Shown here: one piece after another, positions 33,604-37,911 of the stretch
Position numbering within the stretch: the stretch's first letter is position 1
Layout: each line of letters opens with the position of its first letter
Virus genome (UHGV): UHGV-1386588
Reading direction: 5' to 3' (one strand)
Length of the DNA: 40,673 bases
DNA from: a virus
Position numbers and translations under genes: made by a program
The notes under the pieces: model-generated
The model's input: only the letters and a program-made list of their open reading frames with translations
Databases searched by the model: none
Told to the model about the DNA's origin: nothing

Positions 33604-34146
33604 TCACATAACCCCCAACATCGAAGTGACCATAGCCATCAGCGGCGCGGTCAGATCCGGGTCGACACGGAACATCTCTACAATCCCCTCACTGAGTTCC
33701 TTGAGCTTCTGGTGACGCGGGGCGTTCATCGCAACGGCCACTTTCGCCTCGCTCGTTTCTTTCTCAAGTCGAGCTAAGCGGGACATAAAACTGTCCTCTG
33801 GAAGAAGTCGATGGCGATACTCCAGCGGCAAAACGGCCATGATTGCGGGCGTCAGCTGGCGCACGTTCTCGCGGTACTGCTCAGAGTCGAAGCGGTTATC
33901 CAGGAAGCGGAACAGCTTCTGGCGCGCCCGGCTGATGTCGTCCGGAAAGCTGATGGCGGTCCCGCCCTGCTCCCGGTATTCGTTGATGATCAGCGCTGAC
34001 ACCACGTCCTGATTATCCAGCGCCGATGACCAGGCACGGACCGCATCGCGGATCTTTTCGTGGTCCGGCGTCGCTTTAGCTTGAGCGCGGTTTATCATCG
34101 CTCCCGGGTGTATTCCGGTATTGTGTTGATACGCAAGTGAATGCAT
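33604..34146 (-). CDS. YdaT-like protein (cII-position regulator / putative toxin domain)
   Basis: 180 aa, ATG at 34146 with AAGGGA RBS, directly downstream of the cro-like gene; segment LTPAIMAVLPLEYRHRLLP resembles E. coli Rac YdaT as I recall it. Confidence 0.5.
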   Translation of the reverse strand: MHSLAYQHNTGIHPGAMINRAQAKATPDHEKIRDAVRAWSSALDNQDVVSALIINEYREQGGTAISFPDDISRARQKLFRFLDNRFDSEQYRENVRQLTPAIMAVLPLEYRHRLLPEDSFMSRLARLEKETSEAKVAVAMNAPRHQKLKELSEGIVEMFRVDPDLTAPLMAMVTSMLGVM

Positions 34147-34163
34147 TGCTTTCCCTTTCGTGG

Positions 34164-34397
34164 TTAGGCCGCAGTATCACGCGGCGATGCGAATACCAGG
34201 CTTTCTTTTAGGACCGGAGCCTGGCGGTGAAAATTCTTCGTGCCTTTCTCGATAGCAGATGCCATTTCTGGAGATGCCCGGCGATTTCCGTAGGCGATCT
34301 GGTCCAGGTAACCTGGCGTCGTGTTAGCCAACTTTGCGAGCTGCGCCCATTCGTCGGTAGTGGCGGCCTTGCGCCAGCGGTGTAGTTCAGTGCTCAT
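34164..34397 (-). CDS. cro: Cro-like HTH repressor (YdaS/Cro family)
   Basis: 77 aa, ATG at 34397 with GGAGA RBS; HTH DEWAQLAKLANTTPGYLDQIAYGNRR; divergent from the cI gene across the operator region. Confidence 0.75.
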   Translation of the reverse strand: MSTELHRWRKAATTDEWAQLAKLANTTPGYLDQIAYGNRRASPEMASAIEKGTKNFHRQAPVLKESLVFASPRDTAA

Positions 34398-34513
34398 TGG
34401 TGTCTCCGGGTGAGTCGTTTGATTTGGAGTTTAGCGTTATGCTAAATACTACGCAAGCATCATTTAGCAATTTGCACATTTATCATTTTGCTAAAAGCAG
34501 TAACAATGCAGGT
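34398..34513. promoter_or_regulatory. OR operator / divergent promoter region (pR, pRM)
   Basis: Perfect 17-bp palindrome TTTAGCGTTATGCTAAA (34430-34446) and related site TTTATCATTTTGCTAAA (34479-34495) between cro and cI starts. Confidence 0.7.
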
Positions 34514-35191
34514 ATGGAAAATAAAGAAATCAGAAAAGCCAACCTGGAAGCGCTGTACGAGAAGCGTCAGCACGAGTCTGGAATGACCAAAGCGCAGTTT
34601 GCCGAGCTCATCGAGACAAGTCCGGCTGCGCTTAGCCAGCTACTGGGACCAAACCCTCATCGCAATATCGGCGATAAGATGGCTCGCAAAATTGAAACTG
34701 CGCTTGATCTGCCTTTTGGCTGGATGGATGTTTTACACGCCAGTGAAGAACCTTCGAACGTTGCATTTCGAGGACTGAACGAGACAAAAGGAAGTTATCC
34801 TGTAATCAGCTGGGTAAGCGCGGGGCAATGGATGGAAGCTGTAGAACCTTATCACCGAAGAGCGATAGATCGCTGGTATGACACGACTGTTGACTGCTCA
34901 GAAGATTCATTCTGGCTGGACGTTAAAGGGGATTCTATGACCTCCCCGGCTGGACTAAGCATACCCGAGGGAGCAGCGATACTTGTTGATCCTGAAGTCG
35001 AGCCGCGCAACGGAAAGCTGGTTGTCGCGAAGCTAGAAGGCGATAACGAAGCGACCTTTAAGAAGCTTGTAATCGATGCCGGCAGACGCTTCCTAAAGCC
35101 CCTTAACCCCGCATATCCAATGCTAGAAATTAATGGAAACTGCAAAATCATCGGCGTTGTGGTTGATGCCAAAATACTAAACATCCCATAA
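34514..35191 (+). CDS. cI: CI-type prophage repressor (HTH + S24 LexA-like peptidase domain)
   Basis: N-terminal HTH (MTKAQFAELIETSPAALSQLL); C-terminal S24 motifs (GDSM Ser, downstream Lys); start at ATG 34514 (MENKEIRK...) as upstream ATG 34439 lies inside the operator palindrome. Confidence 0.85.
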   Translation: MENKEIRKANLEALYEKRQHESGMTKAQFAELIETSPAALSQLLGPNPHRNIGDKMARKIETALDLPFGWMDVLHASEEPSNVAFRGLNETKGSYPVISWVSAGQWMEAVEPYHRRAIDRWYDTTVDCSEDSFWLDVKGDSMTSPAGLSIPEGAAILVDPEVEPRNGKLVVAKLEGDNEATFKKLVIDAGRRFLKPLNPAYPMLEINGNCKIIGVVVDAKILNIP

Positions 35192-35210
35192 CCTCACGCA
35201 AAACCCCTCA

Positions 35211-35236
35211 AGCCCGCCATCGCGCGGGCTTTTTTA
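35211..35236 (+). terminator. rho-independent terminator after cI
   Basis: Stem AGCCCGC / GCGGGCT with 6-nt loop followed by TTTTTT. Confidence 0.75.
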
Positions 35237-35274
35237 CGTCCCGAATTACTTCGCTGTAAATTTTTAATCGCTTA

Positions 35275-35349
35275 TTAATCAATACGCTAAATAAAACCAT
35301 TCAATAATTTAGCATTTTGCTATTGCGCATAATTTAGCATCACGCTAAA
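35275..35349. promoter_or_regulatory. OL operator cluster / pL region
   Basis: Three sites of the OR-type 17-mer: TTAATCAATACGCTAAA (35275-35291), TTTAGCATTTTGCTATT (35308-35324), and perfect TTTAGCATCACGCTAAA (35333-35349). Confidence 0.7.
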
Positions 35350-35649
35350 TTTACCCCATCGAAACGAAACATCGACAGCTGAGCGAAGTTAGCCAGCGGC
35401 GGACAGCAAGTCGCCTGCTCATTAAGAATTCAGTCAAGCAGCAAATCACCCGGAGCGCTCCTGGCAAATTGAAATGGCGCCCAATGGGATTGAGGCAGGT
35501 GTGTAACGCGTGGCGGGTATAGCACACGAAGAGGACTCCGCACCGGAATGGTTTGCTGCTCAGTTCCCGAACATCGGGGAAGCTTTACCAGCAGCTCTTT
35601 GCGAGGGGCTGACGGCAAATCTACTCCACTTATTTAAAAGAGACGGTAT

Positions 35650-35823
35650 ATGGATAATCAGGATAATGAGTTAAGAAAGGTTGTTCAGGAACTTGCTGAT
35701 GAAGAAGGCATCAGCTTTTCCGATGCCCTAGATGTTTCGATTAAAGCGCTGCGTTATGAGGTAGAGCGCAGAAAATCGTTTAACGGTGAAGCTGCTTGTG
35801 ATGGCTCTGCAATTACTTCTTAG
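35650..35823 (+). CDS. small acidic ORF in the pL leader (hypothetical, 57 aa)
   Basis: Not in the ORF track (<60 aa). ATG at 35650 with weak GAGA RBS; translation MDNQDNELRKVVQELADEEGISFSDALDVSIKALRYEVERRKSFNGEAACDGSAITS; 3' end overlaps the convergent 92-aa gene by 11 nt. Confidence 0.35.
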   Translation: MDNQDNELRKVVQELADEEGISFSDALDVSIKALRYEVERRKSFNGEAACDGSAITS

Positions 35824-36091
35824 CCAAGTACCAAGAGGTGTCTGCGGCTTCGGAAACCAGTACGTAATAGCTTTGCTTTACACTACTAGCTATACCTCTG
35901 ACTTCCTCTCTAACGTTATATGCAGTTGATGTTTTTACGGTTGTATATTCAGCTGTTGGGAGGTTAAACCAAGTGCCATTACCATCCTGTATCTCACGCG
36001 AATAACCCTTTGCTTTCATCTTTTCATGAAGATTTTCATAGTCTTCAGAATCAGCGCCGCGCAACTCAACTCGAACAATATATCTTGCCAT
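35813..36091 (-). CDS. hypothetical 92-aa protein, antisense to the early-left operon (moron candidate)
   Basis: Start at ATG 36089-36091 (MARYIVRVELRG...) with AGGAAT RBS; predicted alternating beta/alpha elements; the long ORF-track version (139 aa) begins at an upstream codon; upstream region carries a duplicated 12-mer. Confidence 0.55.
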   Translation of the reverse strand: MARYIVRVELRGADSEDYENLHEKMKAKGYSREIQDGNGTWFNLPTAEYTTVKTSTAYNVREEVRGIASSVKQSYYVLVSEAADTSWYLAKK

Positions 36092-36205
36092 AAGAAGATT
36101 CCTATATTGACTGTGGAATGAGCAACATATCAGTTTCCTTTGACTGTGGAAAGCAAAGGGACACGGGCCGGGCGTGGATAAAAATCCCGGCACCAACCAT
36201 CGCAA

Positions 36206-36229
36206 AGCCGCCACCTGAGCGGCTTTTTT
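36206..36229 (+). terminator. rho-independent terminator in the early-left leader (tL1-like)
   Basis: Stem AGCCGC / GCGGCT (loop CACCTGA) followed by TTTTTT. Confidence 0.7.
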
Positions 36230-36362
36230 CATACCTAAGAAACTTCGCAGAGGTTTCTAAGTTATGAGACGGCGGCCATCCACCGCCCATTGAAACACTG
36301 AATAAATGCGTTGAAGTCTTGTATTAACCGTTCCGTTCGCCGCGATAAGGCCAAGAGGATTT

Positions 36363-36572
36363 ATGAGTGATTTGGAGTTGGGCTTAAAGATATACGCATT
36401 ATGGTTTGTCGGGACGTTTCTGCTCGGCATAGCAATCAACTCGCTGACGAAAAAAGAACATCGCCAGCCAATTTCAAAACTAGCCATTGACCATGTACGC
36501 ATGTCTTCCGCAATAACCATTGTGGGCCTGATTGTGTGCGGTATGGTCTGGTTCTTATTCAAGGTGGTGTGA
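36363..36572 (+). CDS. small two-helix membrane protein
   Basis: 69 aa; strong RBS AAGAGGA; hydrophobic helices IYALWFVGTFLLGIAI and ITIVGLIVCGMVWFLF. Confidence 0.6.
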   Translation: MSDLELGLKIYALWFVGTFLLGIAINSLTKKEHRQPISKLAIDHVRMSSAITIVGLIVCGMVWFLFKVV

Positions 36573-36573
36573 G

Positions 36574-36732
36574 ATGACAGTCACCCACAACGGCAAGCAG
36601 TACACCGACAAAAAGCTCAACGATAACGAGTGGCAGCTGACGTCGGTATCGGCACCGCGCGACAAGCTGACGCTGAACCGCCAACAGATGAATATCGCTG
36701 GCCTCCTGGAACAGGTTGAGGTGAAGGTATGA
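36574..36732 (+). CDS. small hypothetical protein
   Basis: 52 aa from ATG 36574 with AAGGTGGTG RBS, translationally coupled to both neighbours. Confidence 0.5.
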   Translation: MTVTHNGKQYTDKKLNDNEWQLTSVSAPRDKLTLNRQQMNIAGLLEQVEVKV

Positions 36733-36869
36733 TCAATCATCACCTGCTGCGCGCCGCGCAGAGCAAAGCAGCCATTGCCCTGTTTATCGGTGATGGCGCC
36801 ATGTGGATGGCAGCCTACGACGAAATGAAGGTTGCCATCGGTTATCCGTGGCATAGAAAAACAGCCTAA
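36729..36869 (+). CDS. kil: Kil-like small protein (putative FtsZ inhibitor)
   Basis: Not in the ORF track (<60 aa). 46 aa MINHHLLRAAQSKAAIALFIGDGAMWMAAYDEMKVAIGYPWHRKTA; the IA(L/T)FIGD core and size resemble lambda Kil as I recall it; sits upstream of bet/exo. Confidence 0.5.
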   Translation: MINHHLLRAAQSKAAIALFIGDGAMWMAAYDEMKVAIGYPWHRKTA

Positions 36870-36939
36870 TTCCCCTATTCAACCGATCGGCCTGGCTAAA
36901 AGCGGGCGGGATCTGCACATCCAAATTTCAGGAGAAACC

Positions 36940-37911
36940 ATGAGCGAAGTAATGGACTTAACTGTCATCGAAATCACGCCGGAGCAGGCGCCAGCGCTTT
37001 ACGTAGCGGGCGGCCTTGACGCTTACCTCGAGCAAATCCGCCAGGCAGTAAACGAAGTGCCGGACCTGTCAACGAAGAAAGGCCGTGACCGTGTCGCCTC
37101 TCTGGCGGCGCAGGTGTCGCGCAGCAAGACGGCAATCGAAAAGCCGGGGCGTGAGTACCTGAAGCGCCTGAAAGAGGCTGTGCGCCCCGCTGAGGCGGAA
37201 ATTAAGCGTTTCGTTGATGCCTGCGACGAGCTACGTGATGCCACCCGCCGCCCACTCACCGAATGGGAAGCCGAGCAGGAGCGCATTAAGGCTGAAGAAG
37301 CCATGAACGCGTTGCACGCCGAAGCGCTGGAAATGAACATCAAGTTCGATCAGGAGTTGGCGGCCAAGTTCGAAGCAGACCACGAAATGGCTCTGCTGAT
37401 GAACAAGGATTTCGACCGTGACCGCGAAGAGCAGCGCCGCCAGGCGGAACAGGCTCAACGTGAGCATGAAGAGCGCATTAAGAGTGAAGCGGCAGAGCAA
37501 GCCCGACGCGATGCCGAAGCGAAGCACAAAGCAGAGATTGAAGCCGCAGCGCGCCGTGAAGCTGAAGAGAAAGCTCGCGCTGAACTGGCGGAGCGCCAGC
37601 GCATTGAAGCGGAACAGCGTGCGGCACGCGAGAAGCAGGAAGCAGAAGCCCGGGCAGAACGCGAAAAAGCCGCGGCAGTGGAAGCTGAGCGCCTGAAGGC
37701 AAAACAGGCCGAAGATGCTCGCCTGGCCGAAGAGAAGCGCCTCGCCGATGAACAGGCAAAGCGCGAAGCTGACGTGAAGCACCGCAAGACGGTCGGCACC
37801 AACATCGTTAACGCGCTCACCAGCCACACCAGCTTAACCCGCGAACAGGCTATCGAAGTGCTCACCGCACTTAAAGACGACCTAATCCCCTGCGCAAAAA
37901 TTCATTACTGA
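36940..37911 (+). CDS. coiled-coil E/R/A-rich protein (function unassigned)
   Basis: Start at ATG 36940 with CAGGAGAAACC RBS; about 200 residues of charged ERA-rich heptad-like sequence (EAEARAEREKAAAVEAERLKAKQAE...). Confidence 0.6.
   Translation: MSEVMDLTVIEITPEQAPALYVAGGLDAYLEQIRQAVNEVPDLSTKKGRDRVASLAAQVSRSKTAIEKPGREYLKRLKEAVRPAEAEIKRFVDACDELRDATRRPLTEWEAEQERIKAEEAMNALHAEALEMNIKFDQELAAKFEADHEMALLMNKDFDRDREEQRRQAEQAQREHEERIKSEAAEQARRDAEAKHKAEIEAAARREAEEKARAELAERQRIEAEQRAAREKQEAEARAEREKAAAVEAERLKAKQAEDARLAEEKRLADEQAKREADVKHRKTVGTNIVNALTSHTSLTREQAIEVLTALKDDLIPCAKIHY

Follow-up and report, generated by a model that had tools for sequence, protein, structure and literature searches.

A portable structured cassette upstream of an antisense gene with a predicted GhoS/Cas2-like fold in the pL operon of a phi80-like prophage

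How can a gene that points backwards in the early pL operon of a temperate phage be expressed, and what might it do there? The question is raised by the virus genome UHGV-1386588, a stretch of 40,673 nucleotides (nt), here called the window, which is a lambdoid prophage of the phi80/HK639 type with its repressor gene on the + strand. Between pL and a terminator of the pL transcript it holds a 92-amino-acid (aa) gene on the - strand and a 57-aa acidic open reading frame (ORF) on the + strand. A first-pass annotation made from the letters alone had read the 92-aa gene as expressed in the lysogen and silenced by convergent pL transcription upon induction, in the manner of defence or exclusion genes, with the 57-aa ORF beside it and a duplicated 12-mer upstream as possible regulator sites. 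The geometry, the accessory nature of the gene and the terminator have stood up to analysis, whereas the role of the 57-aa ORF as a partner and the view of the 12-mers as isolated sites have not. Based on sequence comparisons we propose, as the probable explanation, that the locus carries a small accessory gene of the GhoS/Cas2 fold with its own structured, portable cassette, placed antisense in a cargo slot of the pL operon, likely independent of pL and opposed by pL transcription.

The 92-aa gene occupies 36091..35813 (-). The mechanical ORF list opens this frame as a 139-aa ORF at the ATG at 36232; the gene starts instead at the internal ATG at 36091 (MARYIVRVEL...), to which the beginning MA(R/S/D)(Y/F).VRVEL of all 26 of 26 homologue clusters corresponds. 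Its own ribosome-binding site, already recognised by the first-pass annotation, is the Shine-Dalgarno sequence AGGA at 36100..36103 (-), 8 nt before the ATG, which has AGGA or AAGGA equivalents in the cassettes aligned below. Relative to the homologue of Pantoea prophages, nucleotide differences number 11, 6 and 42 at codon positions 1, 2 and 3, with 36 synonymous against 14 non-synonymous codons. By this bias the frame is conserved as coding in related prophages. The GC content of the gene is 40-44% as compared to 48-56% in the flanks, in keeping with the moderate AT-richness noted before. Homologues are antisense in the pL operon of Pantoea and Halomonas prophages, and in a Serratia prophage antisense between Q and holin.

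The interval itself is changeable. We compared window 35430-36205 with E. coli sister prophages (L004-L008) that have the same CI (WP_021571182), the same Cro (WP_000102594) and the same flanks, and found differing genes in between: the phi80 'N' gene (identical in protein), an antisense ECs_2282 zinc-binding gene, TerB with DUF3927, Nmad5, and DUF551. Such turnover within constant surroundings, with CI and Cro unchanged, marks the interval as a variable cargo slot and, as judged from these alignments, as a recombination hot spot for cargo. In the present prophage the slot is filled by the 57-aa pL-operon gene, the backwards 92-aa gene and the 5' cassette of the latter, which ends about 15 nt from a terminator of the phi80 tL1A type. 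As the whole 507-bp unit (35649-36155) recurs in Pantoea prophages at 78% identity, these features are not a product of chance. E. coli FDAARGOS_1250 has a locus 99.7% identical to that of the window. Extra genes that have their own expression signals and are inserted in a phage operon are termed morons. The 92-aa gene is AT-richer than its flanks, is present in some sisters and absent in others between conserved flanks, and is antisense in every context examined, and is on these grounds best classed as an accessory gene of this kind. In transcriptomes of Salmonella prophages, antisense genes with their own promoter are described as typical accessory loci (PMC7067206), and the general pattern found here agrees with published accessory loci (PMC7067206, PMC3594210).

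Upstream of the 92-aa gene lies a structured cassette of about 110 nt (36092-36201, -), composed of two helices and of hairpin units that end at the ribosome-binding site. The duplicated 12-mer, TTGACTGTGGAA on the + strand and TTCCACAGTCAA on the - strand, is found exactly as annotated at 36107-36118 and 36140-36151, and these are its only two exact copies in the 40.7-kb window; what the comparisons overturn is its reading as an isolated pair of regulator sites, as both copies are parts of the conserved leader/promoter cassette. The distal copy (36140..36151, -) forms the loop of the first hairpin unit, the stem of which is UUUCC/GGAAA and the 3' arm of which mimics a ribosome-binding site (AGGAAA). 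The proximal copy (36107..36118, -) contributes the loop and the 3' side of the second unit, directly upstream of the true ribosome-binding site. Between the repeats stands TATGTT (36124..36129, -), a -10-like TAnnnT preceded by TGA and picked out by its conservation: of its letters, T, A and the last T do not vary among 104 aligned cassettes, and many other variants have TATAAT, so that this element may serve as a promoter -10. By eye, the TAnnnT element of some variants also pairs with downstream sequence. Farther upstream are helix S1, in which GCCGGG (36191..36186) pairs with CCCGGC (36172..36167), and helix S2, in which CACG (36176..36173) pairs with CGTG (36165..36162), all on the - strand. 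The two helices are interleaved within 36162..36191, and both are recognised by compensatory changes among the variants.

Three further candidates in this region were set aside. An 8-codon mini-ORF (MLLIPQSI*, 36128..36102, -) starts 7 nt past AGGAAA and its stop overlaps the real ribosome-binding site; its ATG is absent from most other cassettes and we reject it as a functional element. A sequence resembling an RcsAB box, TAAGAAGATTCCTA, overlies the ribosome-binding site (36091-36104, +), the consensus being TAAGAATATTCCTA; an RcsB-type box at this place is not conserved in other cassettes. A + strand promoter with TTGACT as its -35 was also rejected, no acceptable -10 being present at 16-18 bp.

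The cassette is by no means confined to this prophage but turns up in hundreds of phage contigs (the loci compared are L016-L019, L020-L174 and L177-L367). The same stretch of about 110 nt precedes different genes in the phages Louie, where it lies between Q and holin, Edno5, Meifeng and Salmonella MS2 LVA. At least 120 IMG/VR contigs have the double 12-mer, as do 35 species-representative genomes from different Enterobacterales, among them Proteus, Providencia, Photorhabdus, Xenorhabdus, Yersinia, Serratia, Pantoea, Erwinia, Enterobacter and other genera. The window's own version is not frequent in E. coli (13 of 5426 genomes). The cargo of the double-12-mer loci, taken as the first downstream ORF, can be sorted into at least 16 families with no relation to one another; among the matches listed, a 61-aa family (27 loci) and a YmfI-like family (25 loci) are the largest. 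Scans with the two commonest forms of the helices return at least about 120 IMG/VR stretches each, in part the same as the 12-mer set, and together yield at least 199 distinct modules with at least 30 cargo clusters, of which the YmfI-like cluster is the largest among the matches listed. For ten other cargo families, Pfam and NCBIfam gave only weak zinc-ribbon, ECs_2282 and Lar-like matches. Wherever it is found, the unit tends to face the operon: in 79 of 89 loci the cassette and its cargo face against long ORFs upstream, and in 55 of the 89 on both sides. Neither the window nor any of 12 related loci reached the gathering score of an Rfam family, two other variants gave nothing relevant when scanned permissively, and a full-text search of the literature for the cassette motif brought up only unrelated eukaryotic primers. 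The cassette appears to be undescribed so far.

Two occurrences are recorded for their own sake. Some phage contigs have the helices or cassette twice, at a spacing of a few hundred bases, as seen in L165 (6068-6177 and 6672-6784) and L186 (2475-2497 and 3068-3090), which suggests tandem cargo units. The motif is also present in a 50-kb contig of an Aerosakkonema sp. metagenome-assembled genome (L149), the bin of which is assigned to a cyanobacterium; contamination or mis-binning is the likely source.

That the helices are genuine is indicated by the manner in which they vary. Among about 100 distinct sequences S1 takes the forms GCCGGG/CCCGGC, GCCUG/CAGGC, GCUGGG/CCCAGC and UCCUG/CAGGA, whereas S2, which is CACG/CGUG in the window, is elsewhere CCACG/CGUGG, CCAUG/CAUGG, CCCGC/GCGGG, GCCGC/GCGGC or AGUCAC/GUGAUU; the stem variants were also counted by a custom script. 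In the alignment 82% of the helix cells are paired, compared to 76% in column shuffles (none of 500 reaches the observed value) and to 37-48% when the partner columns are slid, and both sides have changed at 6 of the 12 helix pairs. One sequence type stands a column out of register for S2 and was not shifted by a covariance model, and as this type stayed out of register the formal pair counts for S2 are conservative. The strand on which the helices would act is indicated by their G.U pairs, which favour the cargo-sense strand by 76 to 34.

The cassette comes in two forms. In the short form the helices are followed, 0-2 nt on, by one hairpin whose 3' arm contains or abuts the ribosome-binding site and whose loop presents a C/A-rich motif (UUCCACACA, CACCACAG, UCUCACAC). 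The stem of this hairpin changes in a compensatory manner (CCUUCUU/AAGAAGG, UCCUUAAAA/UUUUAAGGA, UUCUGGU/ACCAGAA, UCUUGG/CCAAGA, CUGACGG/CUGUCAG), with a mean z of -1.9 relative to mononucleotide shuffles. The long form, to which the window belongs, has two hairpin units with the invariant TAnnnT between them, and its direct repeats are the loop regions of these units; the two copies match each other within a cassette, yet the word differs among variants (TTCCACAGTCAA, TCCCCAACAG, CCCCAATGCAA, ACCCCTACAG). As the hairpin of the short form begins right after S2, the start of the cargo-sense RNA must, in this form at least, coincide with the helices or lie upstream of them, and such a start agrees with the G.U bias in placing the helices in a 5' leader. 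The TAnnnT of the long form may then be a second, internal promoter.

It is conceivable, though we hold it unlikely, that the repeats are instead DNA operators for a single protein, lying over the -35 region and at +1 of a promoter between them. The copies stand on either side of the invariant TAnnnT at a distance of 33 bp, or about three helical turns, they match within a cassette as their word changes from one variant to another, and the exact word of the window is kept from Proteus to Pantoea, as would suit a conserved host factor. DnaA is a candidate for such a factor, for TTCCACA matches positions 3-9 of the DnaA box TTWTNCACA. The short variants, in which the motif occurs once, within a hairpin loop, and a promoter could not be fitted in, speak against operators; DnaA in particular is disfavoured by the other repeat words, which are unlike its box, and by the conserved GTCAA tail, which falls outside it. 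Separately, the loop of the S1 helix (36173-36181, -), TTATCCACG or in some variants TTATCCACA, also resembles the DnaA box, and is noted as a lead only.

Less likely still is a function of the helices on the pL-strand transcript, where they might form a processing or pause structure ahead of tL1A or make up the 3' portion of an IsrK-type small RNA. In most loci the intrinsic terminator of the pL strand does follow the helices at a distance of about 15 nt, and the + strand folds into two hairpins. Rfam also gives a match to isrK (RF01394) at 36153-36229 (+), but a weak one (21.3 bits, E = 0.19, as compared to a gathering score of 50) that derives mostly from the terminator and is on the strand opposite to the cargo, and we reject it. 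Moreover, the architecture of the IsrK locus (PMC4825925) differs from that of the present locus. The preference of the G.U pairs for the cargo strand, the covarying hairpin that follows the helices and ends at the ribosome-binding site of the cargo, and the lack of a plausible + strand promoter all speak against such a function.

As for the product of the gene, the first-pass annotation recognised neither protein; for the 92-aa protein this no longer holds, whereas for the 57-aa protein it does. The 92-aa protein passes Pfam GhoS (PF11080, formerly DUF2622) marginally, with 22.7 bits against a gathering cut-off of 21 (E = 1e-4), and 39 of 105 sampled relatives reach this family at E < 0.01. 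It matches the NCBIfam YmfI family phage protein (NF051477) over its full length (residues 1-89; 59.6 bits, E = 3e-16) without reaching the equivalog cut-off of 140 bits, and is by these scores a separate subfamily related to YmfI and not an equivalog. It also matches PHROG 8894, a family of unknown function (E = 1e-32), and a profile search of 1.84 billion representatives returned 2045 clusters at E <= 1e-3. An AlphaFold2 model built with 24 homologues has a mean predicted local distance difference test score (pLDDT) of 95 and the order beta-alpha-beta-beta-alpha-beta, which is the GhoS-like ferredoxin fold, GhoS being the best structural match; profile and structure searches for ferredoxin-like or toxin folds had been suggested in advance. 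The protein thus falls into the DUF2622/YmfI/GhoS-like superfamily, and its modelled fold is a Cas2-like ferredoxin fold. Invariant in the family are Arg7, Glu9, His22, Arg32, Glu48, Tyr49 and Lys53, and the fold together with these residues points to a possible RNA-directed activity.

The resemblance to GhoS has found its way into public records, as the NCBI genome annotation pipeline (PGAP) names the protein of a 99.7% identical E. coli locus ghoS ('GhoS antitoxin'). This name, the passage over the Pfam cut-off and the structural match could be taken to mean that the 92-aa protein is an orphan type V antitoxin, an RNase retained by the prophage to destroy the message for a membrane toxin like GhoT or OrtT whose gene would lie elsewhere in the host or on another element, which we consider very unlikely. 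In E. coli K-12 ghoT begins 27 nt after ghoS, and no small hydrophobic ORF of the GhoT type follows the 92-aa gene in the window, in the near-identical E. coli locus or in the Pantoea, Serratia and Halomonas loci. A profile alignment by hhalign places GhoS residues 9-71 on residues 3-65 of the 92-aa protein (probability 37%, E = 3.6e-4) at an identity of 15-17%, and sets Arg28 of GhoS opposite His22, a residue that all of 24 close relatives share and that 90% or more of 105 relatives keep. Arg28 was reported to be the residue that matters most to the RNase activity of GhoS (PMC4010927). The family of roughly 2000 representative clusters, most of whose members seen are phage cargo, likewise counts against this reading. 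As no GhoT-like ORF adjoins the gene and Arg28 aligns with an invariant histidine, membership in type V fails, and on sequence grounds we regard the protein as a GhoS/Cas2-fold member of the YmfI-like superfamily that is not a type V antitoxin. It is a new member of a known, uncharacterised family mislabelled GhoS, and the public label 'GhoS antitoxin' on this family is probably misleading, which matters for censuses of toxin-antitoxin systems.

The 57-aa ORF (35650..35823, +), found in the ORF list and backed by its codon bias and its homologues, is a small conserved gene of the pL operon with no function assigned. It is acidic, as annotated, with 13 D/E to 7 K/R counted from the sequence. 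Compared with the Pantoea copy (78% identical DNA), differences are 11, 9 and 24 at codon positions 1, 2 and 3, and of the 33 changed codons 16 are synonymous and 17 non-synonymous, the other five frames of the region having 3-13 synonymous codons. By these substitution patterns the 57-aa and the 92-aa ORFs both evolve as coding sequence. The 39 homologue clusters of the 57-aa protein, in Enterobacterales, are all named hypothetical, and no Pfam domain was matched. In Pantoea prophages the ORF sits directly after the N_peptide gene, and since it directly follows N in these phages it is an ordinary gene of the pL operon. The tail-to-tail overlap of the two frames described before is confirmed, the stops overlapping by 11 nt (35813-35823), and the overlap is identical in the Pantoea loci.

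The commonest operon-sense gene at or overlapping the stop of the cargo is a 50-80-aa acidic family (MKFE.LP...Q.IAAQ.L...AF..LY), seen in L025, L033, L035, L061, L099, L126 and others, and this family probably indicates where insertion usually takes place, directly behind N. It would be the least probable of all explanations that the 57-aa and 92-aa ORFs form a two-gene module, toxin-antitoxin-like or mutually antisense, with the overlap as a control point: the pair does recur with the same overlap in Pantoea prophages, and many YmfI-like cargo genes run 4-29 nt across the stop of a small acidic gene that converges on them, but the 57-aa family also adjoins a different cargo gene (L021), YmfI-like cargo elsewhere adjoins other, unrelated convergent genes or none, the MKFE.LP family also flanks the 61-aa cargo family, and compact insertion alone would yield overlapping stops. 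As each of the two genes occurs with other partners, a toxin-antitoxin-like pairing was rejected, and the overlap is taken as a by-product of compact insertion rather than as a dedicated pairing; the 57-aa ORF, a pL-operon gene that also lies beside other cargo, is not a special partner of the 92-aa gene.

We return to the explanation that we favour, in which the 92-aa gene is a self-contained accessory unit. The cassette would give the cargo gene transcription and translation signals that are independent of pL, and with these the 92-aa protein could be made in the lysogen. Upon induction, terminator-resistant transcription from pL would read the cassette and the gene in antisense and would probably damp the expression of the gene. 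Expression in the lysogen and a role in defence or exclusion are plausible; the timing of expression, the position of the promoter and any benefit to the host belong to what we infer rather than observe. A broader proposal, which we advance tentatively and with less assurance, is that the cassettes form an undescribed and widespread class of structured 5' leader/promoter elements in temperate phages of Enterobacterales, a pseudoknot or two-state switch followed by hairpin units. Such an element could act as a plug-in module that expresses and regulates small accessory proteins of at least 30 families, their genes lying antisense in early or late operons, with a conserved host or phage factor or a ligand reading the helices or the loop motif and so setting the timing of the cargo.

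Several observations weigh against this picture. In the short variants the distance from the helices to the ribosome-binding site is too small to hold a promoter, and upstream of the helices no consistent -35/-10 was seen. A scan for consensus sigma-70 promoters over 34000-37000 on both strands called none, a scan that is insensitive because pL was missed as well; simple consensus scanning passed over both the pL region and the terminator at 36206-36229. No terminator was found for the transcript of the minus strand. Loops of only 0-3 nt separate the 3' arms of the helices, so that a full H-type pseudoknot is possibly sterically impossible, and S1 and S2 may be alternatives in a two-state arrangement rather than parts of a pseudoknot. 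On the side of the protein, the similarity to GhoS is weak and the fold very common, hence an RNA-directed activity can only be inferred. Sequence and profile searches of the PDB gave chance hits and missed GhoS itself (2LLZ), the PADLOC models did not match the 92-aa protein, and among the viral structures of BFVD nothing fell below E = 4e-3 and no match carried an annotated function.

The setting of the slot is that of a pL operon. The order is a LexA-like CI gene (ending at 35191), the CI terminator, operators and pL, a leader of 300 nt, the interval with the 57-aa and 92-aa genes, Kil, and recombination genes. The OL/pL region (35296..35353, +) has operator-like half-sites TTTAGC...GCTAAA; the probable -35 (TTTAGC, 35324-35329) and -10 (TAAATT, 35348-35353) of pL, on the + strand, were located by aligning the region with phi80, in which the pL -35/-10 and the CI operators are annotated. 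The 5' part of the pL leader (35351..35428, +) is common to phi80, with its first 78 nt 95% identical (L003 2001-2078), and up to 35401 also to HK639 (35351-35401, 92% identical; L002 2501-2552). At the other end of the slot lies the intrinsic terminator (36206..36229, + strand, that of pL), identified by folding and alignment, with a hairpin of -11.9 kcal/mol (z -3.3; none of 200 shuffles as stable) followed by six U. It aligns with the annotated rho-independent tL1A of phi80, with 92% identity carrying on downstream. As a homologue of tL1A it would stop unmodified pL transcripts, as the first-pass annotation had anticipated. Between the shared leader and the terminator phi80 has a long leader and a 98-aa 'N' gene, whereas in the window another leader, the 57-aa ORF and the antisense gene take their place. 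By eye, phi80 'N' (MIDDIKRIDSMINALRN...; L003 2418-2714, L004 2759-3055) has no arginine-rich N-terminus of the lambda-N type and may perhaps have been named by position only. A 46-aa ORF at 36729-36869 matches lambda Kil (Pfam PF06301, 42 bits), and this match together with a downstream RecT-like gene indicates that the pL operon continues on the + strand.

How pL transcripts would pass the terminator is suggested by the leader. The ORFs between pL and the terminator match no Pfam family, N included, in agreement with the earlier remark that an N-like protein is missing. A hairpin at 35584..35619 (+) is identical in 35 of 36 nt (97%) to stem-loop II of the HK639 'putL-like antiterminator RNA', folds into the same hairpin and is retained in the sister prophages L004 and L005. 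A put element is made up of two neighbouring stem-loops, together about 70 nt long, a short way downstream of pL. The sequence of the stem-loop I region of the HK639 element is not conserved in the window leader, and a candidate hairpin, UUCCCGAACAUCGGGGAA, was noted by eye only at about 35561-35582, ahead of the put-like one. Folding of the whole pL leader showed no extra stability relative to shuffles (z -0.4), and across sister prophages the put-like hairpin does not correlate cleanly with the presence or absence of 'N'. Because the prophage encodes no N-like protein and has a put-like hairpin in its leader, RNA-based antitermination would be the likeliest route past tL1A. The locus, a phi80-like prophage that lacks 'N' and has a put-like hairpin, therefore bears on how such phages pass tL1.

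Small accessory genes of prophages are home to many exclusion, defence and host-modifying functions and are hard to recognise by sequence. If our interpretation is correct, the signature of the cassette, two interleaved helices and then hairpins with C/A-rich loops, would be a cheap way to find cargo across the prophages of Enterobacterales; it already marks at least 30 families of uncharacterised small proteins. The cassette itself would then be a new conserved cis-regulatory RNA of phages to study.

A comparison with known systems places the locus as follows. GhoS (YjdK), the antitoxin of the type V GhoT/GhoS system of E. coli (PDB 2LLZ; PF11080), is encoded in a chromosomal two-gene operon with ghoT, whereas the 92-aa gene is phage cargo with its own leader, is antisense in its operon, has no ghoT downstream and shares only the 15-17% identity given above. 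YmfI (NF051477) is alike in its full-length match and its prophage setting, the ymfI gene of E. coli K-12 lying in the e14 prophage, but the score of the 92-aa protein is far below the equivalog cut-off and YmfI is itself without known function. With Cas2 the protein shares the fold and differs in having no detectable sequence similarity and no CRISPR/cas1 context, as no Cas-like gene was found among the ORFs or annotated genes within about 4 kb of it. The put RNAs of HK022 and HK639 have their likeness in the stem-loop II hairpin of the window, located in the pL leader of a prophage without an N-like protein; here the stem-loop I region has diverged, and some sister prophages hold the hairpin together with phi80 'N'. 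Finally, the 92-aa gene is similar to phage morons (lambda rexAB/sieB, HK97 gp15, Salmonella ST64B STMMW_20121) as an extra gene amid conserved operon genes that is AT-richer, variably present in close relatives and antisense with presumably its own signals. It differs from them in that these expression signals form a conserved, structured and portable cassette that is common to at least 30 unrelated families of cargo.

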